Part shown: in pieces, positions 1-32,000 of the stretch
Layout: the number at the start of each line of letters is the position of its first letter
How positions within the stretch are numbered: the stretch's first letter is position 1
Notes under the pieces: model-generated
Databases searched by the model: none
Told to the model about the DNA's origin: nothing
Seen by the model: only the letters and a program-made list of their open reading frames with translations
Made by a program: the position numbers and the translations under genes
Origin: Candidatus Saccharimonadota bacterium
GTDB lineage: Archaea > Nanohalarchaeota > Nanosalinia > Nanosalinales > Nanosalinaceae
Reading direction: 5' to 3'
DNA: 32,000 nucleotides
Assembly (NCBI GenBank): GCA_001761425.1
Contig: CP012986.1
Location: 690,001-722,000 of the forward strand

Positions 1-865
1 GTTCCTTTTTCAGTTCTTCTCTGTAGAATTCTTTTTCATCTTCATTCATCTCATCTAGATCTATAACTGACGCTACAAGCCTTGCGATTGTCTCGATCCT
101 GAAAAAGGCCTCCAGCTCCTCAAAGTTTTCCGGGAGATCTCTAACTTTTTGATAGCCTCTGTAAAATTCTTCTCTTACACTCCATTCCGCTGCAGGATCG
201 TGCATCCAGAAGCTGTTCGCTGACTTCACGAGATCCCTTACATCAAGGCCTGCGTACATGTAATCGAAGTCTATCACGCCTGAAATCTCTTTACCTCTGT
301 ATATGACGTTGTCTGGTGAGAAATCAAGATGACAGGGAACTGCTGTGAAGTTCTCTGGGAAAAGGCCTTCGTTCTTCCTAAGAAATTCTTCAACGCTGTC
401 AGCCACGCCGAAACCGTTTTCCCTGAGTACTGGAATCTTCTCATTGTACATATTGTCTATCTTTCTCCGTTTCAGGGAACCTTTCTCGAAGCTGTGTAGT
501 TGAAGGCCTTCCAGCAGTTCTTCCGGTGTTTGATCTTCTTTCTTCATCTCCATCCATCCTTCATGTGGGAAGGAGGCCTTGCTGTGGATCCTCGCGAGCG
601 TTTTACCTGCGTTCCTGGTTCTTTCCGGGTTTACGTTTTTCTCTGCGGATTCTCCCTGTACTTTTTCGACTGTTGTGAACTTTTGGCCGTTGACTTCCTG
701 GACTTCTCTGGTTACTGTTTCGGGGACAGGTACCGTGTCTTGGAAGAGTTCGTAGCATTTCAGGTTGTGCTTCAGGGAGTCATCTTCTCTACCTGAGAAC
801 TGGACTATGTATTTTTCTCCGTCTACGGTGACTGAGTAAGTTTCGTGCATAAGGCCTTCCTCCAT
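1..865 (-). CDS. APH/choline-kinase-type phosphotransferase (C-terminus cut by window edge)
   Basis: Not in the ORF track because it runs off the edge. Manual translation from ATG at 865: MEEGLMHETYSVTVDGEKYIVQF... Contains CHLDFSPDNVI (HxDxxxxN catalytic loop) and VIDFDYM (DFD metal-binding motif), then continues ...FYREELKKE to position 1. Confidence 0.75.
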   Translation of the reverse strand, partial: MEEGLMHETYSVTVDGEKYIVQFSGREDDSLKHNLKCYELFQDTVPVPETVTREVQEVNGQKFTTVEKVQGESAEKNVNPERTRNAGKTLARIHSKASFPHEGWMEMKKEDQTPEELLEGLQLHSFEKGSLKRRKIDNMYNEKIPVLRENGFGVADSVEEFLRKNEGLFPENFTAVPCHLDFSPDNVIYRGKEISGVIDFDYMYAGLDVRDLVKSANSFWMHDPAAEWSVREEFYRGYQKVRDLPENFEELEAFFRIETIARLVASVIDLDEMNEDEKEFYREELKKE

Positions 866-984
866 CTCGTTTATTTTTTCAGGTTTTCTTTTGAGAACTT
901 TTCTGGTTGCTTTCCTGATTTTTTCTTTCATGGGAGAGGATTTGTGTAAAAGCTGATTTAAACCTGATTTTAGTTATAGAGGTT

Positions 985-1551
985 ATGTCTGATGATGCTT
1001 TGAGCAGGATAGATTTTCCGGACAGAAAGTATACTTTGAAGCAGAAAGCTGTGAGGAATGCGTATAAACTGTATGATTCTGAAGAAAATGAGGTTCTCAG
1101 TGCCAAACAGAAACTTTTCAAGGTGAAGGAGGAGTTCCCGTTCACTGATCCTGAAGGTAATGAGGTGTTCAGTGTACAGGCCGAACAGGTACTTGATATA
1201 GCAGGGGATTACGCGATCATCGATTCAGGTACTGATGAGAAACTGGCTGTACTGAAGAAGGAGTTCACTTTTCTTGTGCAAAAATGGAAAATACAGGATT
1301 CTGAAGGGAATTTTCTCGCAAAGATAGAATCTCGTGGAAAGCTCATGGGCCTTTTCAGGGCGTTTTCGGATCTGGCTGATATATTCCCTCATAGATATAC
1401 TATCGAAGATTCGAATGGAGATCAGATAGGAATTATACAGGGCAAGTTCAGCCTGAGAGACAGGTATGTCATCGAACTTGATGAAAACGCTGAAAACCGT
1501 GAGGCCATCATGGCTGCTGCGGTGACAATCGACGCTCTTGAAGGCAACTAG
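985..1551 (+). CDS. LURP-one-related / tubby-C-like (DUF567) family protein
   Basis: 188 aa ORF with ATG start. KQKLFKVKEEFPFTDPEGNEVFSV, GDYAIIDSGT and FSLRDRYVIELD match the pattern I recall for haloarchaeal LURP-one-related proteins. This is memory-based, with no search. Confidence 0.5.
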   Translation: MSDDALSRIDFPDRKYTLKQKAVRNAYKLYDSEENEVLSAKQKLFKVKEEFPFTDPEGNEVFSVQAEQVLDIAGDYAIIDSGTDEKLAVLKKEFTFLVQKWKIQDSEGNFLAKIESRGKLMGLFRAFSDLADIFPHRYTIEDSNGDQIGIIQGKFSLRDRYVIELDENAENREAIMAAAVTIDALEGN

Positions 1552-1556
1552 AGGCC

Positions 1557-1700
1557 TTAATCTAGCTCTTCTATCTCCTCTCCTTTTTCCGGATTATCTA
1601 CTGTCGGATGTTCGCCAGTTCTGTCGTAACGCCAGTGGTTCTCCGCAGTTTTCCGGTCCGGGAATATGTATCCGCATTCAGTGCATCTGAACTAGCTCAT
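1557..1700 (-). pseudogene. Small C2H2-like zinc-finger ORF with an in-frame TAG at codon 3
   Basis: Manual translation: ATG AGC TAG then FRCTECGYIFPDRKTAENHWRYDRTGEHPTVDNPEKGEEIEELD*. It shows the F-x-C-x2-C-x3-F-x8-H spacing typical of C2H2 fingers. There is no canonical start codon after the TAG. Confidence 0.25.
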
Positions 1701-1741
1701 AATGGAATCTTTCCTGACTTTAGGCCTGGTTTAACACTTTT

Positions 1742-2335
1742 TTACTGAGTTCTTTTTTCTGCCTGCATTTTTTCTATCATTTCGACTCTGGCGTTGTAAT
1801 CTAGATCGGAGTATTCGAAGGTCTTTTTCAGTGTTTCCAGGGAAGGTAGGTGTACATTTACTGGTCCACGGGCTATTGGCTCATTTCTGTCTGTCTCCTG
1901 TTCAAGAAGTCTGTGAACTTCTTTTGCATCGTCGTTTCTCCAGTTAAAGGCCTTTCTGTAGTCTGTTATAACGTCTACGAAGGCCTCTGGTGCTTCCACT
2001 GATGTGGATGCGGATGTGGTGTCATAGCACAGCTGGGAGCCGTCTTCTCTGGTTCTTTCAGTGTGTGGGAAGGATTCGAATGTTTCGAGGTCTGCTATCT
2101 CGCTGTTTGCGTAGAGGTCGATGTCCTTGGTATCGGTTTCGTAATGCAGGTCTCTCCTGTCTGCATGGACTGCCAGCGCGCCGCTTCCTGTCAGGACGGT
2201 ATCGAACTGGAACTCCTCGTCCGTGTATTTTTCTTCTGTATCGTTTAGATAGAACCTGACGTCGCCGTTGAGTACGCCTATAACTCTGTAAACGCTTTGG
2301 CATCCGAGGCCTTCCTCTTCGGAACTTATACGCAT
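1742..2335 (-). CDS. hypothetical acidic protein
   Basis: 197 aa ORF with ATG start that fills the spacer. Composition is acidic. The weak GSGALAVH...DIDLY pattern resembles nucleotidyltransferase folds but is not convincing. Confidence 0.5.
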   Translation of the reverse strand: MRISSEEEGLGCQSVYRVIGVLNGDVRFYLNDTEEKYTDEEFQFDTVLTGSGALAVHADRRDLHYETDTKDIDLYANSEIADLETFESFPHTERTREDGSQLCYDTTSASTSVEAPEAFVDVITDYRKAFNWRNDDAKEVHRLLEQETDRNEPIARGPVNVHLPSLETLKKTFEYSDLDYNARVEMIEKMQAEKRTQ

Positions 2336-2400
2336 TAATTACTACCTCTTGACCACAAGTTTAAATGGTTTTGTCTGAGTAAAGAAGAAATTAGGGAGGC

Positions 2401-2868
2401 CTATTCCTCCCATGTTATCTGGTAGCTGTCGGAGGGTCCTTCACGTATCGAGGCTAGTTTTTCACCTTCTCCAGGAAGTTCATCGGTCGTTACTACAGGC
2501 CTGTGGCTCTTGGCTTCTGTTGCGACCCTGTAGCCTTCGATCTCTCCTTTCTCAAGGTTCATTATCTTGAACTCGCCTTCTCCTGTGTTGTAGCTTTCCA
2601 GACTGGCCTTGAGGTACTCATCTTCCCCAGGTTCAAGTTCTTCCTCGGCCTTCTCCAGTATCTGATCCTTCGGAAGCTCAACGTTCTCAAACTTCAGGTA
2701 CTCCGGTCCTTCTCTGAGTACCTCTTTGACGTCTTCAAATACTTCTCTATACCAGTTTCCTTCAGCTTCGGTGCCCGACCTTCCGGTGAAATCTCCCCAT
2801 TCCCTTAATGTGCTTTGATCAAACAGCTCATCTCCGTTGCTTCTTGCTCCAGCACTCATTGTTTTCAC
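2401..2868 (-). CDS. hypothetical acidic protein
   Basis: 155 aa ORF. The start is GTG at 2868 or ATG at 2859. No recognised motif. Confidence 0.5.
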   Translation of the reverse strand: MKTMSAGARSNGDELFDQSTLREWGDFTGRSGTEAEGNWYREVFEDVKEVLREGPEYLKFENVELPKDQILEKAEEELEPGEDEYLKASLESYNTGEGEFKIMNLEKGEIEGYRVATEAKSHRPVVTTDELPGEGEKLASIREGPSDSYQITWEE

Positions 2869-2988
2869 CTTCTAGTAACAAATTACTCACGGAGTGGTTT
2901 AAAGCTTCTGGCTCAATCTCCTCTATTTTCAGGCCTGGAACTGAGACTTTCGGAAGAAATAAAAATTTTGCCACTTTTAAGTTAAAAC

Positions 2989-3519
2989 ATGCCGAGTATG
3001 AACTTGGGTGAGACACGGCTCAGGGAGATCCCTACGGTCGAGGACCTGGAAAAAATTGAGAGAAAACTGAGGCCTCAGGCCGATAAGTACGAGGTTAATA
3101 TTCTCCAGTCCTTCACGCGTCAGGAGATAGTGGAGAGACTTGCTGAAGATGATGAAAGGCTTTCTGACACTGTGTATACTATTTGGGGAAATGTTTTCGA
3201 GTATGAAGGCCTTGAAGGCAGGATTGATGCTGATGAGGAGAGTCTGAGAGTTGACGTTTTTGATGCACAGGAAGATCTGGATGTCAGGGATGTTATGAGG
3301 ATTGGAGGAGCTTCTAAAGGCAGAACTATGCATGGTAAAGCCGTGAGCAGTTACAGGACTTCTCTGCAGAAAGCCGGTTATGATGCGGATGATCTGGACG
3401 GTGAAGAACTGGCAGAGACAGCGCGACAGGCCCTGGAGGATCTAGGTTACGAATCGTTCGAAGTGGAGATAGATGGTTCAGCTAGAGAGGCCTACGAAGA
3501 AGCTATCAGCAAACTCTAA
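2989..3519 (+). CDS. hypothetical acidic protein
   Basis: 176 aa ORF with ATG start and an A/T-rich TATA-like sequence about 25-35 nt upstream. No recognised motif. Confidence 0.5.
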   Translation: MPSMNLGETRLREIPTVEDLEKIERKLRPQADKYEVNILQSFTRQEIVERLAEDDERLSDTVYTIWGNVFEYEGLEGRIDADEESLRVDVFDAQEDLDVRDVMRIGGASKGRTMHGKAVSSYRTSLQKAGYDADDLDGEELAETARQALEDLGYESFEVEIDGSAREAYEEAISKL

Positions 3520-3533
3520 AGAAAATTGATTTT

Positions 3534-4622: not shown

Positions 4623-4734
4623 ATTTCTCGTGGCTGGGTCTTATCTTTTGTTTCTGAGGATCGGGTTTTCAGGCCTGTAACCTTGAAACTCTCTGAAGAA
4701 GTTTTCTGGTGATTGAAAAAATGTTCAGGCTGTG

Positions 4735-5097
4735 TTATTTTCCCTCTCTGTCCAGTATTTTCCTCTGCCGCGGGATATGTACGTTTCTTGGTTCGAGGAG
4801 CGTCTCGTCTATCTCTACTTCTCCCGTGTTTCTAAGGTTTCTTTCCAGAAAGTCTTTTTCGAAAGGTACAGGCCCGATTTCTCCGCTCCTGTACTCTCCT
4901 ATGACTTTTCTCTCGTATTCTCCTCTGAACTGGTCGGCGACCTGGACATAGAAAATCGCCCTGTCGCCGAAGACTTCAACTTCTGGGGTTAAATCCGCTG
5001 TCCTGGGCATTTCATCCGCGAAATCCTGGTATCTGTCAGTTTCCACGAGTTCTTCAAGCGCGTTATAGGCCTCTCCGTAATCCATACCTCTTCCCAT
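4735..5097 (-). CDS. hypothetical acidic protein
   Basis: 120 aa ORF with ATG start. No recognised motif. Confidence 0.45.
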   Translation of the reverse strand: MGRGMDYGEAYNALEELVETDRYQDFADEMPRTADLTPEVEVFGDRAIFYVQVADQFRGEYERKVIGEYRSGEIGPVPFEKDFLERNLRNTGEVEIDETLLEPRNVHIPRQRKILDREGK

Positions 5098-5552: not shown

Positions 5553-5587
5553 ATACAACTGATTTTTACCTTGGATTTTTTAGGCCT

Positions 5588-8671: not shown

Positions 8672-9229
8672 GTGGAACAGGAATATGATTTTGAAGGCCT
8701 TGAAAGGTTTGAGGCCCGTGAGGAAGGTGACAGCGAGTTTGTAGAGGCCTATTCGGATCTTGGAGATCTGAAGGTCAGGGAGAAAGGTGAGGAACTGGAG
8801 TTTGTCTGGGAAACCGGTTCCGGTTTTGAAGATGTTCTTGAAGCAGTTGAGATGTTTTACAGGAGAGAAAACAGCATCCAGTTCCTGGAAAAGGATGATA
8901 TCTCCGGGGATCTGCGTCACGGAAAGATCAGGGACTACGTTCTTAAAGGACCTGTTCAGGACGGGGACGTCGGTAACTGGAGTGATTACCGGCTTCTGCA
9001 GATCGGAGGTTCTGACTTCTACGTTTCCTGGGAAGATACACTGGAAGATGAAGAGGGCTACCGGATTCGTCTGAACACCTCGGGATCAGGCCTCAGGCCT
9101 TTCGCAGCTGTCTACAGAAATACTCTGGATAGAGAGGTTGAAGATGTTATCAGCGATGTTGAGGAGGAATTTTACGACCGGCCGAGAAGTTTCCCGGGTT
9201 TCTGGGATCCCACCGGCCGGTATAATTAA
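8672..9229 (+). CDS. hypothetical acidic protein
   Basis: 185 aa ORF with GTG start. TTTTAAAC lies about 20 nt upstream, so the transcript may be leaderless. Confidence 0.45.
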   Translation: MEQEYDFEGLERFEAREEGDSEFVEAYSDLGDLKVREKGEELEFVWETGSGFEDVLEAVEMFYRRENSIQFLEKDDISGDLRHGKIRDYVLKGPVQDGDVGNWSDYRLLQIGGSDFYVSWEDTLEDEEGYRIRLNTSGSGLRPFAAVYRNTLDREVEDVISDVEEEFYDRPRSFPGFWDPTGRYN

Positions 9230-11032: not shown

Positions 11033-12229
11033 TTACTGGTTTGCGGAGATTATTTCGATAACATCTCCCTGTTCCAGTTTGTGGTCTGCTCCGATCTGTC
11101 TGTTTTCACGGCAGTCGATTGCGTGTAAAAATCCTTCTCCCAGATCCGAGTGGATGGTGAAGGCAAAGTCCTCGGCAGTCGCTCCTTCAGGTACAAGGAA
11201 GCAGTCCGGTAAGATGTTTCCGTGTTCGTCGCCGAGGCCGTCAGCTCCACCCGGGAAAATCGCCATGACACCCAGCTCCTCGAATAATGCATCTTCCAAG
11301 GCCTTCTGAACGCCTGTGCCTCCGTATTCGCCTATAAATTCTCTGATCTGTTGAAGGCCTTCCATCTTCTCCTCAGGAAGGTCCGATAGAATTTCGAACT
11401 CTTCATCGCCAGGATAGTAATCAACGACGTCCTGCTCTGCTGCGTTTTTCAGAGCTTTCTCCGCGTGAGCTGAAACCGGTACAAAGTCGAGGTGCTGGTA
11501 CTCCGGGTCTTCTGTGATCTCTTCCCAGTTTTCCTGGCTTTTTTCCATATCCATCTTGTTGGCGGCGATGATCATCGGTTTGGTCTCTTTCCTGATTTCA
11601 CGTGCCAGTTCCTCTCTATCCTCCTGCTCCCATTCATCAGGATCCAGTTCAAGGCCTACCTGTAAAATTATCTGTTTTATCTCATTCTTGTTCGTTTTAA
11701 ACGCCGACATCTGCTCGGCCAGTTCTTCCTCCAGCTTGACTTCTTTCTGCCTTCTCTTGTTCTCAAAGCGTTCGATCCCTTTCTGCATGATCTCCAGGTA
11801 CCACATATCAAGCTCCTCCTCCAGGAAATCGATGTCCTCTCTCGGATCATGACTATCTGTCGGCTCTCCCTCAATATCTGTCTCACCGGAAAAATCGACT
11901 ACATGTACCAGGACATCTGCCTCGTTAAGATCTGTCAGGAACTTGTTTCCAAGGCCTTTACCCTCATGTGCGCCGGGTATCAGGCCTGCGACATCCACCA
12001 GTTTGACCGGTACATATCTTGTTCCCGTATGACAGAATCCTACTCTTGGATCACAGCTTTCATCAAAATCCGGTGCTGCACAGTTTACCCGTACGTAGGC
12101 CTCTCCTATCGAGGGATCGATCGTAGTGAAAGGATAGTTTCCCTCATCTACCGAGTTCATCGTTGCTGCGTTGAAGAACGTACTTTTTCCCACAGAAGGT
12201 TTTCCCACCAGTCCGATTTTATAGGGCAT
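11033..12229 (-). CDS. ychF: OBG-family GTPase/ATPase, archaeal YchF/OLA1 type with C-terminal TGS domain
   Basis: G1 motif MPYKIGLVGKPSVGKSTFFNA, G2 YPFTTIDP, G3 VDVAGLIPGAHEG, NKMD at AANKMD, and a TGS-like C-terminus (FLVPEGATAEDFAFTIHSDLGEGF...GDVIEIIS). The track start at 12238 is TTG; the ATG at 12229 is preferred. Confidence 0.9.
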   Translation of the reverse strand: MPYKIGLVGKPSVGKSTFFNAATMNSVDEGNYPFTTIDPSIGEAYVRVNCAAPDFDESCDPRVGFCHTGTRYVPVKLVDVAGLIPGAHEGKGLGNKFLTDLNEADVLVHVVDFSGETDIEGEPTDSHDPREDIDFLEEELDMWYLEIMQKGIERFENKRRQKEVKLEEELAEQMSAFKTNKNEIKQIILQVGLELDPDEWEQEDREELAREIRKETKPMIIAANKMDMEKSQENWEEITEDPEYQHLDFVPVSAHAEKALKNAAEQDVVDYYPGDEEFEILSDLPEEKMEGLQQIREFIGEYGGTGVQKALEDALFEELGVMAIFPGGADGLGDEHGNILPDCFLVPEGATAEDFAFTIHSDLGEGFLHAIDCRENRQIGADHKLEQGDVIEIISANQ

Positions 12230-12332
12230 AAATCCCAAGTAGCAGAGAAATTTTTTAACAGTCGTTTCTGAACCAAGAAAAACTCAGCTCTAGGCCAACT
12301 CTTTAATTCTGCTGAGTCAGATAATTTTCTAG

Positions 12333-13064
12333 ATGAAAATCCTCTCCCTCAACGCTGGCTACTTCCTCGGATACGACGGAACGCTCAGCGACTACATCAG
12401 GCATCCTCTAAGAGGTTTCTTAGGAGACAGTGCCATACAGAGCAAAAGGGTGGATAGGTTCACCCGACTCGTTAAGGAGATCGAACCTGACACAGTCCTG
12501 CTCCAGGAAGTAGATCAAGGCTCCATACGCAGTACTCGTGTATCAAGGCCTGAAGAAGTTTCCAGACAGCTTTCTGACGGTTTTGAGGCCTTTGCAGCGA
12601 CAAAGTACTGTGGCTGGGTGAATTCTCTGCCTTTCCTCGGGAAAATGTCCAATGCCATAGTCTACAGAGAGGGAAAGCTGAAAAACCATTACCTGGAGAC
12701 AGGTAGAAAAAGCCTGGTTCAGGAGATATCGCTTGAAGGTTACAGCATTTTCTCCGTTCACCTGGCCCGCTTCGGGAGCGCGGTTAGGCATAACCAGATC
12801 AAAGAATTGGAGAAGATACTTCATGAGAGAGACGAATACGTTGTGGCCGGTGACTTCAACTTCCACAACAAGGGAGAGGCACAACAGGCCTCAGACGTAC
12901 TGAAAGCCGAGGCCTCGACTGACGGGGAAACATTTCCTGTGGAAAATCCTCGTAAAACTCTTGACATGGCCTTCAGTTCGAAAGGCCTTGATTTAGACGT
13001 TGAGGTTCTCGATAGAAAGATTTCTGATCACAGGCCTCTAGTGATAGATGTTGGTAAGGCCTAA
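12333..13064 (+). CDS. endonuclease/exonuclease/phosphatase (EEP) family protein
   Basis: VLLQEVD, VAGDFNF and the C-terminal SDHRPLVIDV are the canonical EEP catalytic motifs. Confidence 0.8.
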   Translation: MKILSLNAGYFLGYDGTLSDYIRHPLRGFLGDSAIQSKRVDRFTRLVKEIEPDTVLLQEVDQGSIRSTRVSRPEEVSRQLSDGFEAFAATKYCGWVNSLPFLGKMSNAIVYREGKLKNHYLETGRKSLVQEISLEGYSIFSVHLARFGSAVRHNQIKELEKILHERDEYVVAGDFNFHNKGEAQQASDVLKAEASTDGETFPVENPRKTLDMAFSSKGLDLDVEVLDRKISDHRPLVIDVGKA

Positions 13065-13525: not shown

Positions 13526-14827
13526 CTAGAGGAAATCCTCCTTCTCCAGGTGTTCAACTACCTCATCCTTATCTAGAGCCTCTTCTTCACCCGAATCCAT
13601 ATGTTTCATGGTAACTTCATCGTTCTCCAGGTCCCGTTCCCCGATAATTAAAACACGTTTCGCGTTCATGTCGTCAGCGTATCCAAGCTGCTGTCCAAAA
13701 CTTCTTCCGGTTAAATCTGTCTCCACAGATAGGCCTTCCTCTCGGAGAGTGGTTGCATAATCGAGGGCGACGTCTCTCACTGATTCGCTGACTGACAGAA
13801 CGTAGACATCAGTTTCAACCTCGCTGAGAGGGTACCGGTCTTCCTTCTTCAGCAGTTCGATTGTCGGAGAGTAACCGAAGGCAAATCCTACCGCCGGAAC
13901 TTCTCGGTCTCCAAAGGTTCCGACCAGTTCATCATATCTTCCACCGCCGAAAAGCGCTCTCAGCTCGCCCTCGGAGTCGAAGGCCTCGAAGACGAGTCCG
14001 GTGTAATAAGCCAGGCCTCGGACGATGGAGAGGTCAAAACGGCACATACTGGCGACGCCGTAGCTTTCCAGAGCTTCCCCCAGGGATTCCATCCTGTCAA
14101 CGCTTTCCTGAACTTCTTCAGGCGCTTTCTTCCTTAACTCTTCGATATTTTCGAGTATGGGCCCTGAGATATCTGTCAGTTGATCGACCTGTTCAGCATC
14201 TTCACGTGTAAGGCCTCGATCAGTCAAGTCTTCCAAGAATTCTTCCTTCGTCATCTTCTCCTTGTCGTCGACAACTTTCATCGCTTCCTCAGTCTTTTCG
14301 ATGCCGTGAGCTTCAAGGATTGATTCCAGAAGCTTTCTGTCGTTTATCTTGAACTCCACCCGGTTATCAAGGCCTAATTTCTGGAATATACTAGCAGCTG
14401 CTGCTATAATTTCGGCGTCCGCCTCCACTGATTCGATACCGAAGATGTCGATGTCCGTCTGCCGGAACTCCCTATCTCTTCCTTTAGTCACGTCTTCATA
14501 TCTCCACCTTTTCCCGGTCGAGTACCATTTTACCGGTGTCTTCAGGTCCTTTCGTTTCTGCATGAGTCGTGCTCTCCCTGGCGTCGCCTCCGGGATAAGC
14601 GTTATTTCGTTGTCGCCTTTGTCCGTGAAGGCATACATTTCATCTGTTACTGAGTCTTCTTTTTTCTCAGTCCAGAGCTCCTGCCTCTCGATACTTGGCG
14701 GGTCGATCTGGCGGAATCCGAATTCTTCCGCTGTTTCTTCTACTGTTTCGATCAGTTTTTTCCACGTCTCCCACTTGTCCGGGTAACGGTCGTACGTGCC
14801 TTTCAGAGATTCCAGATTAATCGTCAT
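13526..14827 (-). CDS. hisS: histidine--tRNA ligase
   Basis: 433 aa class II aaRS. Contains FRQIDPPSIE, TLIPEATP, YSTGKRWRYE, FRQTDIDIFG, GLAYYTGLVFE and the HisRS-specific GGGRYDEL, plus a C-terminal anticodon-binding domain. Confidence 0.92.
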   Translation of the reverse strand: MTINLESLKGTYDRYPDKWETWKKLIETVEETAEEFGFRQIDPPSIERQELWTEKKEDSVTDEMYAFTDKGDNEITLIPEATPGRARLMQKRKDLKTPVKWYSTGKRWRYEDVTKGRDREFRQTDIDIFGIESVEADAEIIAAAASIFQKLGLDNRVEFKINDRKLLESILEAHGIEKTEEAMKVVDDKEKMTKEEFLEDLTDRGLTREDAEQVDQLTDISGPILENIEELRKKAPEEVQESVDRMESLGEALESYGVASMCRFDLSIVRGLAYYTGLVFEAFDSEGELRALFGGGRYDELVGTFGDREVPAVGFAFGYSPTIELLKKEDRYPLSEVETDVYVLSVSESVRDVALDYATTLREEGLSVETDLTGRSFGQQLGYADDMNAKRVLIIGERDLENDEVTMKHMDSGEEEALDKDEVVEHLEKEDFL

Positions 14828-14843: not shown

Positions 14844-15713
14844 TTATGCATTCGTTCTCTCCAATTCTTTAAACGAGTTTTCCGGTTTTGCCGTCCATCT
14901 TCGGAGGTAACTGTCCGCAGTTCTCTCGTATCTGAGGTCGTTCCTGTCCGCTGTATCACCTGAACCTACTATGTAGACTCCGCCGATCTCTGGTTCCTTC
15001 CCGATCAGTTCTTCCTCATCATCGTAAATAATGCTGTTTTCCTCTGCGTAGTCCTGGAAGGTGACAGTCTCCACGTCGTCCCAGATATAGTTAGCTATGG
15101 ATCTTGAGATGGTTTCATAGTCCTGAGAAACAAGTACAGTTTCTATACTTCCGTCCTCTAGATTCTTGGAAACCATAGCAGATAAACTTACTCCATCGTC
15201 GACAGCCTCATCCATCTCATAGCTTTCTACACTCTCATCCAGAATCTGGCCCAGATCAACTTTACCACGTCCACTGGAACTGTTCTCACCAAGGTAGACC
15301 TGATCAACGGAACCGTTCTCGTACCTCTCTAGATCCACGAGGCCTTCAAGCAGTTCATCTACTGCCAGGTCGTCAGGAGCATAAACCTCATCAAAGCCCA
15401 ATCCAAATGTATCGTCGCTATAGCCCTTCACAGTCCCTGACCTGGTCTCTACTTCATCGAATCCGTAACGCGGACTCTTCCTCCCTGTATCCTCAAATCT
15501 GCCGGCTTCCTGCCAACCTCTCTGCTGAACCTCATCCAGAAACCCCTGACTGATGCTCTCACTCTTCGCCTCCTCCTTGGACTTTCCGTTAAACTGGTCA
15601 GCGAGAAATCCCGGGTCATAAAACGTATCGTCCAGAACTTTTCCAGCCGCTTTCCTGAAGTTTCTTCCCTTCCAGGGAACACCGATGAACACGACCACCC
15701 TGGACTGAATCAC
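14844..15713 (-). CDS. hypothetical acidic protein, translationally coupled to the upstream AbrB-like gene
   Basis: 289 aa. Its GTG start overlaps the upstream TGA as GTGA (15710-15713). No recognised domain. Confidence 0.5.
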   Translation of the reverse strand: MIQSRVVVFIGVPWKGRNFRKAAGKVLDDTFYDPGFLADQFNGKSKEEAKSESISQGFLDEVQQRGWQEAGRFEDTGRKSPRYGFDEVETRSGTVKGYSDDTFGLGFDEVYAPDDLAVDELLEGLVDLERYENGSVDQVYLGENSSSGRGKVDLGQILDESVESYEMDEAVDDGVSLSAMVSKNLEDGSIETVLVSQDYETISRSIANYIWDDVETVTFQDYAEENSIIYDDEEELIGKEPEIGGVYIVGSGDTADRNDLRYERTADSYLRRWTAKPENSFKELERTNA

Positions 15714-16054
15714 TCACTAATAACCACCTCAACAGTTTCACCATCAAAGGAGAAGCTCTCAACCCTGGAAAAGCTGTACACAAAGGCCTTCGCCTCCTCA
15801 AAGTCTGAAACCTTTTTCTCCCTGACCGTTGCATTCTCTACTGTTATCCTTAGAGAATCGCCGGTTTCAAGGCCTAACCTCTTTCTTATCCTGGAAGGTA
15901 CCGTGATACGGCCTTTGGAATCAAGCTGTGCAGAGCATGTGAACGCCCCGGATTTCCTTCGGACATCTGCTTCGTTCTCCTCTGAGGAGGTGAAAACATT
16001 CACCTTGTGTTGAAGGTGAATTTGAGAAGTCTCCAGAGGAGCTTCGGCCGCCAC
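15710..16054 (-). CDS. AbrB/MazE/SpoVT-family DNA-binding protein
   Basis: SAQLDSKGRITVPSRIRKRLGLETGDSLRITVE is a clear SpoVT-AbrB swapped-hairpin motif. The start is uncertain (GTG at 16054, no in-frame ATG upstream of the domain). Confidence 0.7.
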   Translation of the reverse strand: MAAEAPLETSQIHLQHKVNVFTSSEENEADVRRKSGAFTCSAQLDSKGRITVPSRIRKRLGLETGDSLRITVENATVREKKVSDFEEAKAFVYSFSRVESFSFDGETVEVVISE

Positions 16055-19446: not shown

Positions 19447-19593
19447 GCCCCGTTAGCTCAGCTGGTAGAGCACGTCCTTGGTACGCCTGGTTACGCTCGT
19501 GCGGCACGCAAAGACCGGTTCCACCGGCCCCGCCTAAAGCAGAATCAGTTCACAAACAGGACGAGGTCCCGGGTTCAAATCTCGGACGGGGCT
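19447..19593 (+). tRNA. tRNA-Thr(GGU) interrupted by a 74-nt intron at the canonical 37/38 position
   Basis: Folded by hand. Acceptor GCCCCGT/ACGGGGC with discriminator T; D-arm GCTC-AGCTGGTA-GAGC; anticodon stem CGTCC/GGACG with loop TT-GGT-A|intron|A; variable AGGTC; T-arm CCGGG-TTCAAAT-CTCGG. No encoded CCA. Confidence 0.88.
19484..19557 (+). other. tRNA-Thr intron (74 nt, GC-rich, internal hairpin CCGG-TTCCA-CCGG)
   Basis: Boundaries are inferred from the cloverleaf. The central BHB helix can only be drawn with 3 of 4 pairs (T32-A, T33-A, G34-C, G35.A). Confidence 0.6.
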
Positions 19594-19676
19594 CTGAATC
19601 TTTTCCATTTTATGAGCTTTTGAGGCCTTGATGGTGCGAATGCTTATGTGAGAATGAGTTTGTATCTGGATTTTAT

Positions 19677-20618
19677 TCAGAGTTGGTTGAGTAGGGATTC
19701 TATTCTATTTGTTATTCTTTTTTCAGTGTCTTCTTTGTCACTGAAGATTACCAGTAGTCTGGTCATCTGAAGTAGTTCGTATAGTTTTTCCGTGATTTCG
19801 TCATAATTGATGTTTCTGCTTTCTCTGTAGCCTTTTCTGAAAGCTTTCTGATATTTTTCGTCTTCATTGAGCCAGAAAATTCTGATCTCGCTGATTACTA
19901 AATCCAAGAAGGGATCGCCAGCAGCTGCTGTCTCCCAGTCCAGGACAGCAATATCATTTTCCTGGAAGAGAGTATTCCTCAAGTCAAATTCCATGTGGAG
20001 CAGAGTTGAGTCCTTTCTTTCATCCAGTAAATCTGAATATTTATCGAAGCTTTTCTCTGCCTTAACCGCAGTTTCATCGTAGCCGTTTTCTCTTAGTCTT
20101 TTCATCCACCATTCCTGAAGACTCTTCACTCCTTCAGACCAGGTATTATCAGAGATACTAATACCGTTCTCAGGTTGTATCAAACCAGAACGATTGAATG
20201 AATGCGAGTTGTGTACGCCTCCAAGTGTTTTACCCATTCTACGGGAAAGAGTAATCTTTTCCTGTTCCTCCAGATTATGAAAGTTTCTTCCGCCAGAGTA
20301 TCTGTTCAGATTTTCTCCATCCAGGTATTCCATTATACGGAAATATCTTCCTTCTATCTCACCTTCACTAATTATTTCTGGAGTATGAACATCAGATTCC
20401 TCTAAAAGCTTGAGTATCTCTGTTTCCCTATACATCTCTTCCTGCCATCCCGAAGTCCAGTCCTCATTCTTCTCCAGCTTAACAACATACTTCTCATCTA
20501 TGATAAACGTGTGATTTGCATCCCCTACCGATGAAGAAACTAAATCTATATCGTTCTCATTTAGTCTCTGCTCCACCAGTTCCTGAACCAAGTTCGCTAC
20601 CTCACCTGAATCGGACAT
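19677..20618 (-). CDS. APH/choline-kinase-type phosphotransferase paralogue (catalytic loop HxE instead of HxD)
   Basis: LLHMEFDLRNTLF aligns to HxDxxxxN with Glu at the Asp position. VLDWETAAAGDPFLDL is the DWE/DFG-equivalent motif. The N-lobe has VVKLEK (Lys). Confidence 0.7.
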   Translation of the reverse strand: MSDSGEVANLVQELVEQRLNENDIDLVSSSVGDANHTFIIDEKYVVKLEKNEDWTSGWQEEMYRETEILKLLEESDVHTPEIISEGEIEGRYFRIMEYLDGENLNRYSGGRNFHNLEEQEKITLSRRMGKTLGGVHNSHSFNRSGLIQPENGISISDNTWSEGVKSLQEWWMKRLRENGYDETAVKAEKSFDKYSDLLDERKDSTLLHMEFDLRNTLFQENDIAVLDWETAAAGDPFLDLVISEIRIFWLNEDEKYQKAFRKGYRESRNINYDEITEKLYELLQMTRLLVIFSDKEDTEKRITNRIESLLNQL

Positions 20619-20689
20619 ACCGATAAATTATCAAGAGTAAATTAAAGGAACCTGTGAAATCCAACTCTAAATCAGTCAAAAAATCTTAT

Positions 20690-21409
20690 TCACTCCGGAT
20701 TTTTTCTGGTGTGGTTGGAATACGTTCCATATAGAGCGATCCACCCGGCGAGAAGAAGTAAACCTATCTGTAGAACCACTATCATCGAACCATCAAACAA
20801 ATCCAGCAGCTGAATAAGAGGGAAAACCGTCAGACTGTACATAAATGGTGCAAATGTCTTCCTGAAACCTTTGTTTCCTGTCAAAAATGCTGCTCCATGA
20901 GTCACTGTAGCTAAAGCAAAGATTGACGCCGAAATTCCGAGAGCAACTGAAATAAGATGTGCTATTAAACCTTCAAAAATTAGGAATTCTGCTCCTGCGA
21001 CCAGTAACACTGATTTCGAACCATACACAAAATCATAGTAAGAAATAGCCTGGGTCAGCAAAACACTTGACACACCTATCATCAGCCAGTTTTCAACTTT
21101 TCTTCTCTGGTCACCGTAAAACAGATACGGTTCTTTGACAAGCAGTTTTACGTTTTCAACTAAACCACCAGATTTCAACCTGTAAAGATACACCATACTT
21201 ACCGTAAACACTAAAATTCCGCCATAGAAAAGTAGTTCTCCCGTAATACAGACCGCATCGCTAGGCCCTGCAGCAATCATTCCTCCCGGAACCTCCCTTG
21301 CCACAGGATTTCTACACCTTAATCTTACTCCATGACCTAAACCTGTAAGAAAAATAGAAACCAGTACCGAAAATTTGGTGAAGGTCTGTCTCGAGATCAT
21401 ACCGGCCAC
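20690..21409 (-). CDS. polytopic membrane protein, unknown function
   Basis: 239 aa with about 6-7 TM segments, not acidic. Start is GTG at 21409 or ATG at 21400. TTTATAAAT lies about 30 nt upstream. Confidence 0.55.
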   Translation of the reverse strand: MAGMISRQTFTKFSVLVSIFLTGLGHGVRLRCRNPVAREVPGGMIAAGPSDAVCITGELLFYGGILVFTVSMVYLYRLKSGGLVENVKLLVKEPYLFYGDQRRKVENWLMIGVSSVLLTQAISYYDFVYGSKSVLLVAGAEFLIFEGLIAHLISVALGISASIFALATVTHGAAFLTGNKGFRKTFAPFMYSLTVFPLIQLLDLFDGSMIVVLQIGLLLLAGWIALYGTYSNHTRKNPE

Positions 21410-21531
21410 AGAAATAGATAGCTACCTCTGATTTATAAATTAAGCGCCAAGTAAGGCATCTACAATAATCAACTGATCCAGTAAGATTCTCTATCCGAAT
21501 TTTTTACAGAATCTATCGCATTAAACCCGAA

Positions 21532-24583: not shown

Positions 24584-25045
24584 TTGATTGAAAAAGTTCT
24601 GAACCGCAGTTGGTCGGTGAACTTATACGGATGGGCCACGAATTCAGTGGTTGTGAGCACTTCGAAATCTTTGAGACATGATATCGCCCGTGCGAAAGAT
24701 CTCTATGAACGGGAGTTCAAGGCCTTGACCAGAAACTTCTACATTATGAGGTCTGCTCTCCGCTATTTCTCTGTTAAACAGGGGCTCTCATTCACTTCTT
24801 CAAAAGTGGCGGATAACTTTCCTGTCACTGTCTCTACCGCAGGCTCCTGCCTCAAAGTCATGGATGAGATCGGTGCCGTAGAATCCAGGAACTCCAGCAG
24901 AAAAAGGTTCATGCCCCAGAAATGCGACCTCGAAAAAATGGAGGAAGCGGGAGAGATCCTGAGAGCAAACTACGAAATAAGAGATTTCAGGCCTGAAGCT
25001 GATAAAAATCCGGAAAAAGTCAGACAGACAGAGAAGGAAAAATGA
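24584..25045 (+). CDS. hypothetical protein, possible winged-helix DNA-binding fold
   Basis: 153 aa with a TTG start in the track (start uncertain). FTSSKVADNFPVTVSTAGSCLKVMDEIGAVE looks HTH-like. It lies 10 nt upstream of the next gene. Confidence 0.4.
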   Translation: MIEKVLNRSWSVNLYGWATNSVVVSTSKSLRHDIARAKDLYEREFKALTRNFYIMRSALRYFSVKQGLSFTSSKVADNFPVTVSTAGSCLKVMDEIGAVESRNSSRKRFMPQKCDLEKMEEAGEILRANYEIRDFRPEADKNPEKVRQTEKEK

Positions 25046-25055
25046 GGCCTAGAAA

Positions 25056-28311: not shown

Positions 28312-29350
28312 AGAACCTGTTCTCCCAGAAAAACTTGAAAAAGGAGACAAGGTAGCGGTAATCGCGGTCTCATCCGGGATAAAAAATCGGTTCCCGGCAG
28401 CTTTCGAAAAAGGCCTTGAAGTCCTCAGAGAAAGATTTGAACTGGAACCTGTGACATACCCCAGTGCTGAAAGAGATACCGAATACCTCAACCAGCATCC
28501 AGAGGAGAAAGCCGAGGAACTTATGGAAGCGTTCGAAGATCCGGAGATTAAAGGCGTCGTAGCTGTAACAGGCGGTGACGAGCAGCTCAGAGTCCTGAAA
28601 CACCTGGAACAGGAAAGACTGAAGCAGAACCCGACACGTTTCTACGGAATAAGCGACAACACCAATCTACACGTCTATCTTAACCAGTTAGGTCTTCAAA
28701 GCTTCTACGGAGGCCAGTTAGTCAGCGACCTGATGGCACAGGAAGAAATCGCAGACTACACCTTCAAGCACCTGGAGAAGGCCTTTTTCAGCGACTCACT
28801 GGGAAAGATCAGGGCCTCGGAAGAATTCAGTGACGATTTCGTTGATCTAACCAGGGATAAGATTGTCGATAACAGGGAAAAATTTGAGAACCCTGGCTGG
28901 GAGTTCTGGAACTTTGAAAACGAGGTCTCCGGCCGTCTTTTCGGTGGCTGCCTCGAGATAATCTACTGGATGCTTGCCTCGGGAAAGATAGATACAGATA
29001 AACTTGAGGGAAAGATTCTGGCACTTGAGGCATCGGAAGCTCCTTCAGAGACAGAGGTCAAGAGATGGCTGATGTGCATGGGTGAAAGAGGTTTCCTGCA
29101 GAAGTTCGAAGCCATCATCGTTGGAAGGCCTGTCAGAGAGCCTCTTCACGGCGAGGAAAAAACTTTGGAGGAAAAAGAAGAGTATCACAGCAGGTTCAAG
29201 GAAAGAATTAGGAAAGAAATCCATCGATACTGCCCGGATACCCCAGTGGTCTTCGATATGGATTTCGGGCATACAGATCCGAAGATTCCTCTTCAACTCG
29301 GCGGCAAAATCTGTTTAAGGCCTGAAAAAGAAGCTGTAGAATTCAGTTAG
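28304..29350 (+). CDS. S66 family serine peptidase (LD-carboxypeptidase / MccF-like)
   Basis: LEKGDKVAVIAVSSG, IKGVVAVTGGDEQLRVL, FYGISDNTNLH (nucleophile Ser context G.SD.T.L), and DMDFGHTDP (catalytic His context fGH). 8-nt overlap with the upstream gene. Confidence 0.8.
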   Translation: MNEEPVLPEKLEKGDKVAVIAVSSGIKNRFPAAFEKGLEVLRERFELEPVTYPSAERDTEYLNQHPEEKAEELMEAFEDPEIKGVVAVTGGDEQLRVLKHLEQERLKQNPTRFYGISDNTNLHVYLNQLGLQSFYGGQLVSDLMAQEEIADYTFKHLEKAFFSDSLGKIRASEEFSDDFVDLTRDKIVDNREKFENPGWEFWNFENEVSGRLFGGCLEIIYWMLASGKIDTDKLEGKILALEASEAPSETEVKRWLMCMGERGFLQKFEAIIVGRPVREPLHGEEKTLEEKEEYHSRFKERIRKEIHRYCPDTPVVFDMDFGHTDPKIPLQLGGKICLRPEKEAVEFS

Positions 29351-29830
29351 ATGAGAATCCGGCATGCCAACGTCGATGACGTAGAAAAGATACAGGACAT
29401 CGCCATGGAGACATGGCTCGATACATACAAAGACATAATCGACGAAAACACTATCAGAGAGATCGTAGAAAGCTGGTATGACAAAGAGGACCTTGTTCAA
29501 CAGGTAAAAGATCCTGTCTTCTTCGTAGCAGAAGATGATGAAGGCCTGACAGGCTATGTGCATGCTTCGGTGAGGAAAGAAAAATCTCACCTTCACAGAC
29601 TGTACGTAAGACCTGAAAGCCAGGGCAAAGGCAAAGGGGGAAAACTATACGATAGAGCAGAGCAGGAGATCACTGATTCTGGAGCTGAAAGGATAGAACT
29701 TGAAGTTATGGCAGAGAACAGTAAAGGCCTTGGTTTCTACAGATCCAGAGGTTTTACAGAGGACAAGGAAGAAACTGTGGTCCTGAACGGTAAGAAAATC
29801 GTCCAAAAAGTCCTTTTCAAGCCTCTCTAA
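29351..29830 (+). CDS. GNAT N-acetyltransferase (Acetyltransf_1 type)
   Basis: LHRLYVRPESQGKGKGGKLY (acetyl-CoA Q/RxxGxG/A motif) and GFYRSRGF. The ATG follows the upstream TAG immediately. Confidence 0.8.
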   Translation: MRIRHANVDDVEKIQDIAMETWLDTYKDIIDENTIREIVESWYDKEDLVQQVKDPVFFVAEDDEGLTGYVHASVRKEKSHLHRLYVRPESQGKGKGGKLYDRAEQEITDSGAERIELEVMAENSKGLGFYRSRGFTEDKEETVVLNGKKIVQKVLFKPL

Positions 29831-29974
29831 CACCTGGGCTTTCAGCCTCTCCTTTCATCAACGGGAGAAAAATGTTTTTGAAGAGATAATTGAAAAAGGC
29901 TTGATTTTTTCGGGTTTCCATAACTGTTTTGTACTGGCGAACAGGTTTTAAGCTTACAGTTCAAAATTTTTTCC

Positions 29975-30541
29975 ATGTCAGTTTTAGCTTATGTCGCGGG
30001 AGGTATAGTCGTTCTTGTCGCTCTGATAAGTATTTACTATTACAACAGGATGGTGAAGCTGGAAAACCGTGTGGACAATGCATGGGCGCAGATAGATGTC
30101 CAGCTTAAGAAACGTGCCGATTTAGTGCCTAATCTTATGGAGACGGTCGAGGGATACATGGAGCACGAAAGAGAAGTAATGGATCAGGTCTCAGAGTCCA
30201 GGGAGAAAATGATGAACGCACAGAGCCAGGAAGAGGAGGTCCAGGCTGGAAATGACATGGGAAAGGCTCTCAAATCACTGTTCGCCGTCGCAGAGGACTA
30301 CCCCGATCTGAAGGCGTCGCAGAATTTCTCCGAGCTTCAGCAGGAACTATCAAGTATTGAGAACAAGATTGCCTACGCACGCCAACACTACAATGACTCA
30401 GTCATGACATTTAACAACGCGATCGAGACCTTCCCGGCTGTTTTATTCGCCAACATCTTCGGCAAACAGGAGAAAGATCAGCTTGAGATCGAGACAGCAG
30501 ATAAAGAGCTTCCAGAAGTAGATTTCTCCAGCGATGAGTAA
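29975..30541 (+). CDS. lemA: LemA family protein
   Basis: N-terminal TM segment then YYYNRMVKLENRVDNAWAQIDVQLKKRADLVPNLMETV...YPDLKASQNF..LQ.EL...ENKIAYARQHYNDSV..FN, which is the canonical LemA sequence. Confidence 0.88.
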   Translation: MSVLAYVAGGIVVLVALISIYYYNRMVKLENRVDNAWAQIDVQLKKRADLVPNLMETVEGYMEHEREVMDQVSESREKMMNAQSQEEEVQAGNDMGKALKSLFAVAEDYPDLKASQNFSELQQELSSIENKIAYARQHYNDSVMTFNNAIETFPAVLFANIFGKQEKDQLEIETADKELPEVDFSSDE

Positions 30542-30559
30542 AGAGGAGGTGAAAGGCCT

Positions 30560-31429
30560 ATGATGCTGGAAGATCAGATTAAATGGAACCGGCGTAAAAG
30601 CTATGCATTACTCTTCATAGTTCCACTAATCCTTCTGGCGGTTATATTCGTCTTTGGAAGAGTTTTCGTACCGAGAATCAGCCCTTTCCTTATTCTCGCA
30701 GCTGGATCAGGTATATCAGTTCTGTACGTGCTTTTCTCCTATTTCAAGAGCGATGAAATGATACTTGAGGTTGTGGGCGCAAAAGAAGCTTCCGAACAGG
30801 AGTACAGCCAGCTTCATGATTTAATGGAAGGCCTTACTATCTCTTCCGGTATGTCCAAGCCTGATCTCTACATACAGGAAGATGACAGGATCAACGCGTT
30901 CGCAACCGGTAGAAAACCAGAGGACGGGAAAGTCTGTGTGACAACCGGTGCACTGGAGAAACTGGACGAAGACGAACTCGAAGGAGTCCTGGCCCACGAA
31001 CTCTCACACATCAAAAACCAGGATATCATGTTCATGACAGTCGCAGTCGCACTGATCGGAGTCATCAGCATCATCAGCGAACTACTGCTCCACAGCATGT
31101 TCTTCGGAGTAGACGATGATGCACCACCATGGGCAATGGCAGCAGGCCTTTTACTCGCAATCCTCGCACCTATATCAGCGAGAATGGTACAGCTTGCCAT
31201 GTCAAGAAAAAGAGAATACCTGGCCGATGCTTCAGGCGCACAGATGACACGCTACCCGGAAGGCCTCGCATCAGCACTGGAAAAAATCCAGAACCAGAAA
31301 AACCCGAAGATGGATGTGAACAAAGCCGTCTCGCACCTGTACTTCTCAAATCCCTTCAAAAACAAGGCCTCTTTCTTCTCAACGCATCCACCGCTGGAGG
31401 AAAGAGTTGAAAGACTCCGCAACATGTAA
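30560..31429 (+). CDS. htpX: M48 family zinc metalloprotease, HtpX-like
   Basis: Two N-terminal TM segments, INAFATG, HELSHIKNQD (HExxH), two further TM segments, and REYLADASGA (third ligand Glu region). Confidence 0.88.
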   Translation: MMLEDQIKWNRRKSYALLFIVPLILLAVIFVFGRVFVPRISPFLILAAGSGISVLYVLFSYFKSDEMILEVVGAKEASEQEYSQLHDLMEGLTISSGMSKPDLYIQEDDRINAFATGRKPEDGKVCVTTGALEKLDEDELEGVLAHELSHIKNQDIMFMTVAVALIGVISIISELLLHSMFFGVDDDAPPWAMAAGLLLAILAPISARMVQLAMSRKREYLADASGAQMTRYPEGLASALEKIQNQKNPKMDVNKAVSHLYFSNPFKNKASFFSTHPPLEERVERLRNM

Positions 31430-31438
31430 AAAAATTTT
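31428..31438. terminator. A7T4 spacer between convergent genes, candidate oligo-T terminator
   Basis: TAAAAAAATTTTAG lies between the htpX stop and the stop of the 31437-31862(-) gene. Confidence 0.25.
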
Positions 31439-31862
31439 AGCTGAGGTTCTCTCTCAGGAGTCCCTGTGTGTATGCTCCCAGTAACATTCCTGCTATCGCC
31501 AAAAGAGCAGGAAAGTTCCCTATACCGATACTTGCGTATGCTGCTCCGGGACAGATCCCTGAAATACCCCATCCTACGCCGAATACGATACCGCCGAAGA
31601 CTACTCTTCTATCAAGGTCTTTAACGCGTTTTCCCAGTTTTTGACCTGTTATCAGAGCCTCTATGTTTCTCCTTACTGCGATTTCGAATAGAAGGCCTAC
31701 TGAAACAGCTCCTGTAAGCAGGAAAGCCAGTAACCCTAGGTCCTTGAGCTGGAGGAAGTTCAGAACTACTTCAGGCCTTGCCATCTGGCTCAGGGCCAGT
31801 CCCAGGCCGAAAAGCATTCCGCCGGTGATGTAGACTGCGTTCAGCTTCCGGCTTTTTTTCAT
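31437..31862 (-). CDS. YeeE/YedE-family (sulfur/thiosulfate transport) half-size membrane protein
   Basis: 141 aa with 4 TM segments. GVGWGISGICPGAAY is the GxCPG signature of this family. Confidence 0.7.
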   Translation of the reverse strand: MKKSRKLNAVYITGGMLFGLGLALSQMARPEVVLNFLQLKDLGLLAFLLTGAVSVGLLFEIAVRRNIEALITGQKLGKRVKDLDRRVVFGGIVFGVGWGISGICPGAAYASIGIGNFPALLAIAGMLLGAYTQGLLRENLS

Positions 31863-32000
31863 GGAGTTACCCCCAGTGCCTGTACGGTCAGTGCTGTGAT
31901 GATTGCGGTGAAGAGGAAGAAAACAAAGTTGACTATCGAGGCCTTTGACAGCGATCCTATCCCGTTCATACCGTGTCCTGAGGTACAGCCTTTGCCGAAC
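31859..32000 (-). CDS. YeeE/YedE-family half-size membrane protein (N-terminus outside the window)
   Basis: Manual translation: FGKGCTSGHGMNGIGSLSKASIVNFVFFLFTAIITALTVQALGVTP*. Shows the GCTSGHG signature. ATGA overlap with the downstream paralogue. Confidence 0.7.
   Translation of the reverse strand, partial: FGKGCTSGHGMNGIGSLSKASIVNFVFFLFTAIITALTVQALGVTP

Follow-up and report, generated by a model that had tools for sequence, protein, structure and literature searches.

AGGCCT, a hyper-abundant palindrome dispersed through a nanohaloarchaeal genome and unevenly shared by its relatives

A single hexamer saturates the window

The stretch of DNA analysed here (32,000 bp of contig CP012986.1, positions 690,001 to 722,000, henceforth the window) carries the palindrome AGGCCT under the influence of a directional, hexamer-specific force that acts at the level of DNA, is worth about 30-fold in odds and varies in strength among lineages. 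This force decides, by context, which synonymous codon is used and, less strongly, alters amino acids. The exact count in the window (GC 46.3%) is 151 copies against an order-0 expectation of 6.6, a 23-fold excess that amounts to one site per 212 bp, or 4.7 per kb. The original prediction, made by a reader of the sequence alone, had put the number at about 150 and the excess at about 20-fold over 6-8 expected copies, an estimate that the count reproduces, well above 100. Over 50.4 kb of the same genome 232 copies were found (4.6 per kb), which by extrapolation would be about 5,000 per genome. The source is an uncultured member of the Nanohaloarchaeota (DPANN), in keeping with the archaeal source assumed at the outset: the closest matches to its histidyl-tRNA synthetase (HisRS, 68-89% identity), whether from GTDB genomes or from metagenomes, all belong to that phylum, and a metagenome scan recovered no relative closer than about 88% HisRS identity.

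AGGCCT ranks first among the hexamers of the window, about twice as frequent as any other, the next in line, AAGGCC and GGCCTT, with 71 copies each, being overlaps of AGGCCT itself. Among palindromes it alone is enriched there. That the signal resides in the hexamer, with about 70% of the GGCC tetramers inside it, had also been proposed, and the measured proportion is 151 of 220 (69%), the second-ranked NGGCCN form occurring only 11 times. The sites are spaced almost exponentially (mean 212, coefficient of variation 1.02, no phasing), and no longer consensus or repeat unit was found around them in the window, where the commonest 12-mer containing AGGCCT is present five times and every 14-mer at most twice. 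A dispersed repeat family of the repetitive extragenic palindrome, miniature inverted-repeat transposable element or CRISPR kind was considered and rejected, as no consensus beyond the core is shared. The base before the site is A or G in 73% of cases and the base after it T or C in 65%, and to this extent the suggested extension to RAGGCCTY holds. The longer palindrome itself does not, since the preference shifts with codon phase (T at -1, for example, gives a TAG stop in one phase) and therefore reflects codon context and no longer motif. Two independent assemblies, contig Ga0136257_100001 of Joint Genome Institute (JGI) metagenome 3300010222, 1,125,078 bp long with the window at roughly 696,420-728,419, and a 139-kb Logan contig of SRR2630167, are identical over about 50 kb of the region, and the HisRS sequence of the window is identical on both.

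Sites occur in all codon phases and in spacers

From long non-overlapping open reading frames (ORFs) we called 42 genes, covering 87% of the window and agreeing with the JGI gene calls. Sites within them fall in all three codon phases (18, 43 and 65 in phases 0, 1 and 2), and the spacers are as rich as the genes, with 5.36 AGGCCT per kb in non-coding DNA (23 in 4.3 kb; about 0.9 expected, about 26-fold) versus 4.55 per kb in coding DNA. Among the types of intergenic region no enrichment was seen, neither a preference for convergent gene ends nor inverted pairs at gene ends. The window and some individual sites are as follows.

1-32000, no strand: AGGCCT-saturated window, with 126 sites within genes, another 23 in spacers and 2 lying across gene ends
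2989-3519, plus strand: gene with AGGCCT in all three phases (AGG-CCT at 3070, GAA-GGC-CTT at 3205-3213, GAG-GCC-TAC at 3487-3495)
9088-9100, no strand: closest pair of sites, 7 nt apart start to start (starts 9088 and 9095), CAGGCCTCAGGCCTT
13057-13062, no strand: site overlapping the stop of an ExoIII-family gene (12333-13064), AGGCCTAA, from sequence
25045-25050, no strand: site overlapping the last stop-codon base of the gene 24584-25045, TGAGGCCT, from sequence
30554-30559, no strand: site abutting the ATG of an M48 peptidase (HtpX-like) gene (30560-31429), from sequence

Every individual site named in the original prediction (3070, 3207, 3488, 1552, 13057, 25045, 30554 and the pair 9088/9095) was recovered at its position. 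One of these had been described as joining two convergent stops at 1549-1559; AGGCCT does lie there, at 1552, but only one of the stops is a true one, the TTA of the opposite strand ending no called gene.

When synonymous codons were shuffled within genes, a procedure that keeps the protein and the codon usage (including the codons inflated by AGGCCT itself), 23.6±4.1 sites were expected (500 shuffles, maximum 37) versus the 126 observed within genes. Shuffling the codon order of the 42 genes left 9.1±2.8. The codons concerned are chosen by their neighbours: glycine is encoded by GGC in 77% of cases before leucine vs 21% elsewhere, alanine by GCC in 76% of cases within [KEQ]-A-[FLSYCW] vs 20% elsewhere, arginine by AGG in 86% of cases before proline vs 31% elsewhere, and proline by CCT in 91% of cases after arginine vs 40% elsewhere. 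With an excess in all phases, on both strands and in spacers, the cause therefore acts on DNA and not via protein sequence or codon usage. The earlier argument from phases and spacers, that neither a protein motif nor codon usage could be the cause, thus stands on both nulls.

Readings of the excess as a by-product of amino-acid, codon or dinucleotide bias, as a family of dispersed repeats or as an assembly artefact could appeal to the maximal-order Markov expectation from the 5-mers of AGGCCT itself (135, a null that already holds the signal) and to the flanks that follow codon context; they are refuted by both shuffles, by the density of non-coding DNA, by the context-specific codons and the want of a longer consensus round the sites, by the identity of two independent assemblies, and by the same signal (z 13-21) in genomes and metagenome-assembled genomes (MAGs) of at least six independent projects, and we give them practically no credence.

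Relatives range from near absence to saturation

To place the window among its relatives we used 43 nanohaloarchaeal loci (18 from genomes and 25 from metagenomes, anchored on HisRS, 2-21 kb each), four of which duplicate others. A position was called permitted when AGGCCT could stand there without amino-acid change, i.e. at Arg-Pro, xAG-Ala-Txx and xxA-Gly-CTx. In the window 118 of 160 permitted positions (74%) are occupied, against 0-13% in many relatives. By occupancy, the loci are distributed as follows.

0.64-0.75: the window, L001, L014, L016, L017 (Ca. Nanosalina sp. VS9-1), L031 and L038
0.53-0.58: L010, L012, L037 and L049
0.37-0.43: L002 (M3_22), L028, L029, L035, L044 and L051
0.09-0.24: several loci
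0-0.06: L003, L004, L007, L013, L015, L018, L033, L034, L041 and L042

Pooling the seven genomes of high density (the window with its flanks, L001, L014, L016, L017, L031 and L038) gives 462 occupied positions out of 649 (71%), and the seventeen low-density relatives together 56 out of 777 (7.2%), an odds ratio of 31.5. This ratio in coding DNA and the roughly 26-fold non-coding excess can therefore be fitted by one multiplier of about 30-fold, and by our own arithmetic a uniform odds advantage of that size would cover both compartments. Scored against the synonymous shuffle, z is 13-21 in five other genomes, L017, L016, L031 and L044 among them, and -1.7 for L003.

High and low occupancy are interleaved among close relatives. 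In a HisRS neighbour-joining tree, poorly resolved at these depths, the window (0.74) adjoins L004 (0.06), L012 (0.55) adjoins L034 (0.03), and L035 and L044 (0.43) adjoin L033 (0.02). It is safer to state that the taxa at 84-89% HisRS identity to the window cover the full range of occupancy. Among these taxa no more than 29-48% of four-fold degenerate sites agree, close to saturation, and there has been time enough for complete gain or decay of AGGCCT. The genomes of intermediate occupancy may be decaying, accumulating or at a weaker equilibrium. Pairs of 98.8-99.9% identity occur only among these intermediate genomes, and they differ at just two AGGCCT sites, too few to polarise the change.

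A search of the low-density lineages for alternate palindromes of the same kind found none. AGATCT is in mild excess in L045 (contig NAR1_11) and L007. In L045, where there are 32 copies vs 6.9 expected, it was considered as a second highly iterated palindrome and set aside, z being only 3.3 against the synonymous shuffle; excesses of TCGA in low-density lineages were likewise rejected, as they are explained by codon usage. One of the low-density loci, L003 (JBLGBK010000010.1), is titled 'MAG: Colwellia polaris', but orthologues from nanohaloarchaea match its HisRS (88%), its Obg GTPase (84%) and two further genes nearby (72-78%); judging by these identities the contig is probably mis-binned or mislabelled.

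Maintenance at orthologous codons and footprint in proteins

Two genes of the window served for comparison with the relatives.

11033-12238, minus strand: Obg-like GTPase gene (Pfam), 6 sites, with an orthologue in nearly all relatives, used for site-by-site comparison
13526-14827, minus strand: HisRS gene (Pfam), 5 sites, the anchor for fetching the relatives' loci

Over three orthologous genes only (HisRS, Obg and DUF4186), 54% of the AGGCCT sites are retained between high-density genomes vs 14-25% for control hexamers, and 7% of them from high- to low-density genomes. Between the window and L017, eight of ten sites are retained. At the same codon columns distant high-density genomes carry AGGCCT, and low-density ones AGGTCT, AGGACT or AGGGCT. 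Synonymous positions in general being randomised, the shared sites therefore reflect continuing maintenance or convergent refilling and not common descent. The orthologue comparison suggested with the original prediction finds AGGCCT at synonymous positions conserved above the controls.

In these genes most sites are synonymous with respect to the low-density orthologues (nine of ten in the window), and some coincide with an amino-acid replacement, such as GAN to GGC at column 581 of the Obg alignment. A wider footprint is visible in protein composition. Permitted positions number 6.0-6.5 per kb in high-density genomes vs 3.2-4.1 in most low-density ones (low-density range 3.2-5.3). The observed/expected ratio is 1.58 vs 1.12 for Gly-Leu and 1.54 vs 0.90 for Arg-Pro; the reversed dipeptides, Leu-Gly and Pro-Arg, show no rise in high-density genomes, and Gly-Ile and Gly-Val are lower. 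Leucine makes up 9.7% of residues in high-density and 8.6% in low-density genomes. With Gly-Leu and Arg-Pro enriched in this way, AGGCCT has therefore altered proteins.

A stretch free of AGGCCT

One part of the window escapes the pattern, and its features are these.

19624-21531, no strand: AGGCCT-free stretch of 1.9 kb and low GC (41% vs 47%), with 0 of 6 permitted positions occupied
19677-20618: APH-family kinase gene, in the AGGCCT-free stretch
20690-21409: membrane ORF, in the AGGCCT-free stretch
19447-19593, plus strand: 147-nt tRNA gene with an intron (Rfam RF00005, 49.4 bits), not reported by ARAGORN

At 77% occupancy the chance of finding none of six positions filled is about 1.5e-4 by our own arithmetic. 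The stretch starts some 30 bp past the tRNA gene, and tRNA genes are typical integration sites. Its kinase is only 24% identical to a native paralogue at positions 2-931, which has six sites. No flanking direct or attachment-site repeats were found around the stretch. It is probably a recent foreign insertion, yet to be converted, and if so the process works on resident DNA over time. In cyanobacteria, the absence of the comparable palindrome HIP1 has served to detect horizontal transfer (PMC3497702).

Resemblance to known systems

The closest analogue, already named in the original prediction, is the cyanobacterial highly iterated palindrome (HIP) HIP1 (GCGATCGC), and the analogy holds for each phenomenological criterion tested, namely excess, dispersal and conservation of sites. 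HIP1 and the alternate HIPs of cyanobacteria (GGCGCC, GCCGGC, GCsGC) are, like AGGCCT, GC-cored over-represented palindromes, HIP1 being 15- to 300-fold and AGGCCT 23-fold in excess (PMC5861425, PMC4390886 and PMC3497702). Both are dispersed in all frames and in spacers, outside any longer repeat; both have sites conserved between genomes above background, occur sporadically among relatives and are absent from foreign DNA. For HIP1, variants one base away from the palindrome are biased to the outermost positions; those of AGGCCT tend in the same direction, modestly and in part owing to GGCC depletion in the low-density baseline. The differences are equally clear. AGGCCT is found in DPANN archaea and is a hexamer with A/T ends. 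Its density is some 4-5 times higher (4.6 vs about 1 per kb), it fills 71-75% of the permitted positions, it has left a footprint in the proteome, and its occupancy grades continuously from one near relative to another. The alternate HIPs of cyanobacteria have a cognate methyltransferase, whereas here one is only proposed; HIP1 proper, the sequence GCGATCGC with CGATCG and GATC methyltransferases, is a different element.

Other systems share fewer traits. The StuI-type restriction-modification system of Alcanivorax borkumensis SK2 recognises the same six base pairs, AGGCCT (PMC12128166). A restriction target is usually neutral or avoided; here, by contrast, the sequence is enriched more than 20-fold. 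By our estimate from genome size and GC, the 1674 sites of A. borkumensis correspond to about 0.5 per kb, roughly twice the compositional expectation. The uptake signal sequences (USS) of Haemophilus and the DNA uptake sequences (DUS) of Neisseria are also short motifs that accumulate genome-wide in all frames, spread by drive without a function for each site and are lacking in foreign DNA; unlike AGGCCT, they are longer and asymmetric, number about 1 per kb and in many cases stand as pairs at terminators. Very-short-patch repair by Vsr at the Dcm sites (CCWGG) of E. coli provides a methyltransferase-tied, sequence-specific repair bias that shifts oligomer frequencies. Its effect on these frequencies is small and it is specific for T:G mismatches, in contrast to the shift of about 30-fold seen here with no special depletion of C-to-T neighbours.

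In the searchable literature we came across no account of AGGCCT being enriched in nanohaloarchaea, nor of a HIP in any archaeon, in agreement with the earlier impression that no archaeal equivalent had been described. Few compositional features of prokaryotic genomes are as extreme as HIPs, whose origin in cyanobacteria has been open for more than 20 years. AGGCCT would be a HIP in Archaea, denser than HIP1 and overriding codon choice at three quarters of the eligible codons. The graded relatives, with at least two complete genomes and at least one lineage apparently in culture, make the origin of HIPs testable by comparative genomics. In practice the hexamer can also help to bin nanohaloarchaeal contigs and to flag DNA acquired recently.

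How the sites may arise and persist

The cause of HIPs was left open by Elhai in 2015, who considered biased repair (PMC4390886), and by Xu et al. in 2018, who considered selection (PMC5861425). For AGGCCT, we tentatively favour, at somewhat less than even chances, a HIP-type genome-wide feature, confined to one group of Nanohaloarchaeota and built by a recognition protein, likeliest an orphan AGGCCT methyltransferase, together with biased repair. The force would depend on a protein reading the symmetric 6-bp site in the manner of a homodimeric type II (StuI-type) enzyme, and the gene for this protein would have been gained and lost among lineages. Were it, as seems most plausible, an orphan DNA methyltransferase for AGGCCT, the parental strand would carry a methyl mark after replication, and this could bias mismatch repair in or at the site toward the intact sequence. 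Loss of sites would then run about 30 times slower than gain, and they would build up wherever the protein tolerates them; once the gene was lost, AGGCCT would decay to background.

Several observations are consistent with this scheme. Protection from loss would fit the near-equal odds of the inner one-off variants and, given a laxer reading of the outer bases, the excess of outer ones as well. Relative to low-density genomes the outer variants have odds ratios of 0.9-2.7 (GGGCCT 1.7, AGGCCC 2.7, AGGCCG 1.6) and the inner ones, in the GGCC core, of 0.5-1.1, both modest and partly due to depletion of GGCC in the low-density baseline. A similar outer bias of HIP1 variants is interpreted by Elhai as the trace of a methyltransferase core, and according to the same paper each alternate HIP of cyanobacteria co-occurs with a methyltransferase of that specificity and methyl-directed repair is proposed as a ratchet for HIPs (PMC4390886). 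In A. borkumensis SK2 methylation reaches nearly all of the 1674 AGGCCT sites, in both strands (PMC12128166). A REBASE survey lists for nanohaloarchaeon M3_22 a single restriction-modification gene, for a type II methyltransferase that is predicted to make m4C, lacks a partner nuclease (PMC10609329) and may or may not read AGGCCT; the locus of M3_22 (L002) has an intermediate occupancy of 0.37. Finally, the gain and loss of AGGCCT among near relatives resembles that of mobile restriction-modification genes.

Restriction has left traces in these genomes that also count in favour of the scheme. Palindromic 4-mers are avoided in a lineage-specific manner: ACGT in L004 (1 vs 81 expected), CTAG in L011 (3 vs 81) and L014 (2 vs 53), GATC in L013 (5 vs 56), CGCG in L002 (2 vs 62) and GGCC in L007 (10 vs 49). 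In the window itself CTAG (41 vs 124 expected) and GCGC (21 vs 92) are scarce. This suggests intense and fast-changing restriction pressure in the Nanohaloarchaeota, and changing restriction-modification repertoires do mark these genomes strongly.

Other points weigh against a methyltransferase with biased repair. The one methylome published for a nanohaloarchaeon reports GDGCHC (PMC10266531). Our own search covered 30 ORFs of the window and four candidate ORFs of relatives by Pfam, the called genes in 10 kb on each side, and all loci by motif patterns and by tblastn with an approximate M.HaeIII query. By Pfam and motifs, no gene for a methyltransferase or site-specific nuclease was detected in the readable 52 kb of this genome; neither a methyltransferase, nor a StuI-like nuclease, nor a Vsr-like gene, all suggested with the original prediction, is encoded in the window or within 10 kb on either side. 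Some 600 kb of the relatives' loci yielded no DNA methyltransferase save, in L009, a type IIG enzyme resembling Eco57I. Depletion of the one-off variants that arise by C-to-T change (AGGTCT, AGGCTT and complements) does not exceed that of the transversion variants, in raw counts or within the permitted-position framework, and m5C with very-short-patch-like repair, as had been put forward, lacks its signature in both. The density of 4.6 per kb lies well above the ceiling of about 1 per kb in Elhai's mismatch-repair model. Lastly, biased repair and direct selection of sites would predict the same in sequence data of this type.

The enzyme of L009 (16276-19935, plus strand), from a Nanohalobium MAG, is a 1220-aa Eco57I/MmeI-like type IIG restriction-modification protein and is unlikely to be linked to a palindromic site.

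A more specific form of the methyltransferase proposal, which we hold as a rather doubtful possibility, is that one mobile gene, or a pair of genes (an AGGCCT methyltransferase and a partner repair nuclease), switches a site-generating ratchet on and off in lineages. If this were true, profiling of gene presence and absence over the range of occupancy from 0 to 0.75 would identify the machinery that makes HIPs. Bolder still, the dense mark might enable this ectosymbiont to distinguish its own DNA from host DNA taken in or broken down.

Direct selection is nearly as likely as repair bias linked to a methyltransferase, though still well short of probable. Here the sites would be kept for a function, as a dense binding or marking array for a dimeric DNA-binding protein, under weak purifying selection at each site. 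Possible roles are nucleoid organisation, a strand-discrimination or self mark about every 200 bp, and protection of own DNA during degradation of host DNA, and lineages that lose or replace the protein would let the sites decay. Retention at orthologous codons far above the synonymous background argues for selection, and Xu et al. have argued for selection on HIP1 from site conservation (PMC5861425); biased repair would, however, lead one to expect retention just as much. Coding and non-coding DNA share one odds multiplier, and the dipeptide ratios given above indicate that amino-acid changes were tolerated to make sites. One site per about 212 bp resembles, moreover, the density of GATC in E. 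coli, where it serves methyl-directed repair. Nanohaloarchaea also have giant 'SPEARE' surface proteins with restriction-endonuclease domains that are thought to be host-directed (PMC9765267). On the other side, selection would have to be effective individually at each of some 5,000 sites in a genome, close relatives thrive without AGGCCT, no candidate binding protein was identified, and the sites are randomly spaced without phasing or enrichment in any type of intergenic region.

An uptake or recombination signal, favouring motif-bearing fragments of related cells and so spread by molecular drive as for the USS and DUS of Pasteurellaceae and Neisseriaceae, is a possible but poorly fitting explanation that we regard as improbable. 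Uptake sequences share with AGGCCT the spread over all frames and spacers, the placement at low cost (here mostly at synonymous positions, with some amino-acid change), the absence from foreign DNA, here the recently acquired DNA, and the differences among lineages. Known ones are, however, asymmetric sequences of 9-12 nt that number about 1 per kb and fall far short of filling the permitted positions, and a palindrome of 6 bp would discriminate only about 14-fold over a GC-rich host genome by our estimate from composition. No inverted pairs stand at gene ends. Competence is not known in the phylum, and the comparative-genomics paper that we checked makes no mention of it. A scan of viral contigs for AGGCCT clusters gave, among the matches listed, mostly tandem repeats and chance matches.

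Neighbouring genes

A two-gene unit on the minus strand (14844-16054) encodes a 114-aa SpoVT/AbrB (MazE-antitoxin-like) protein, whose gene shares 4 nt with that of a 289-aa protein without Pfam match. The two may form a toxin-antitoxin-like pair, and the pair is conserved (72-78%) in L003 only.

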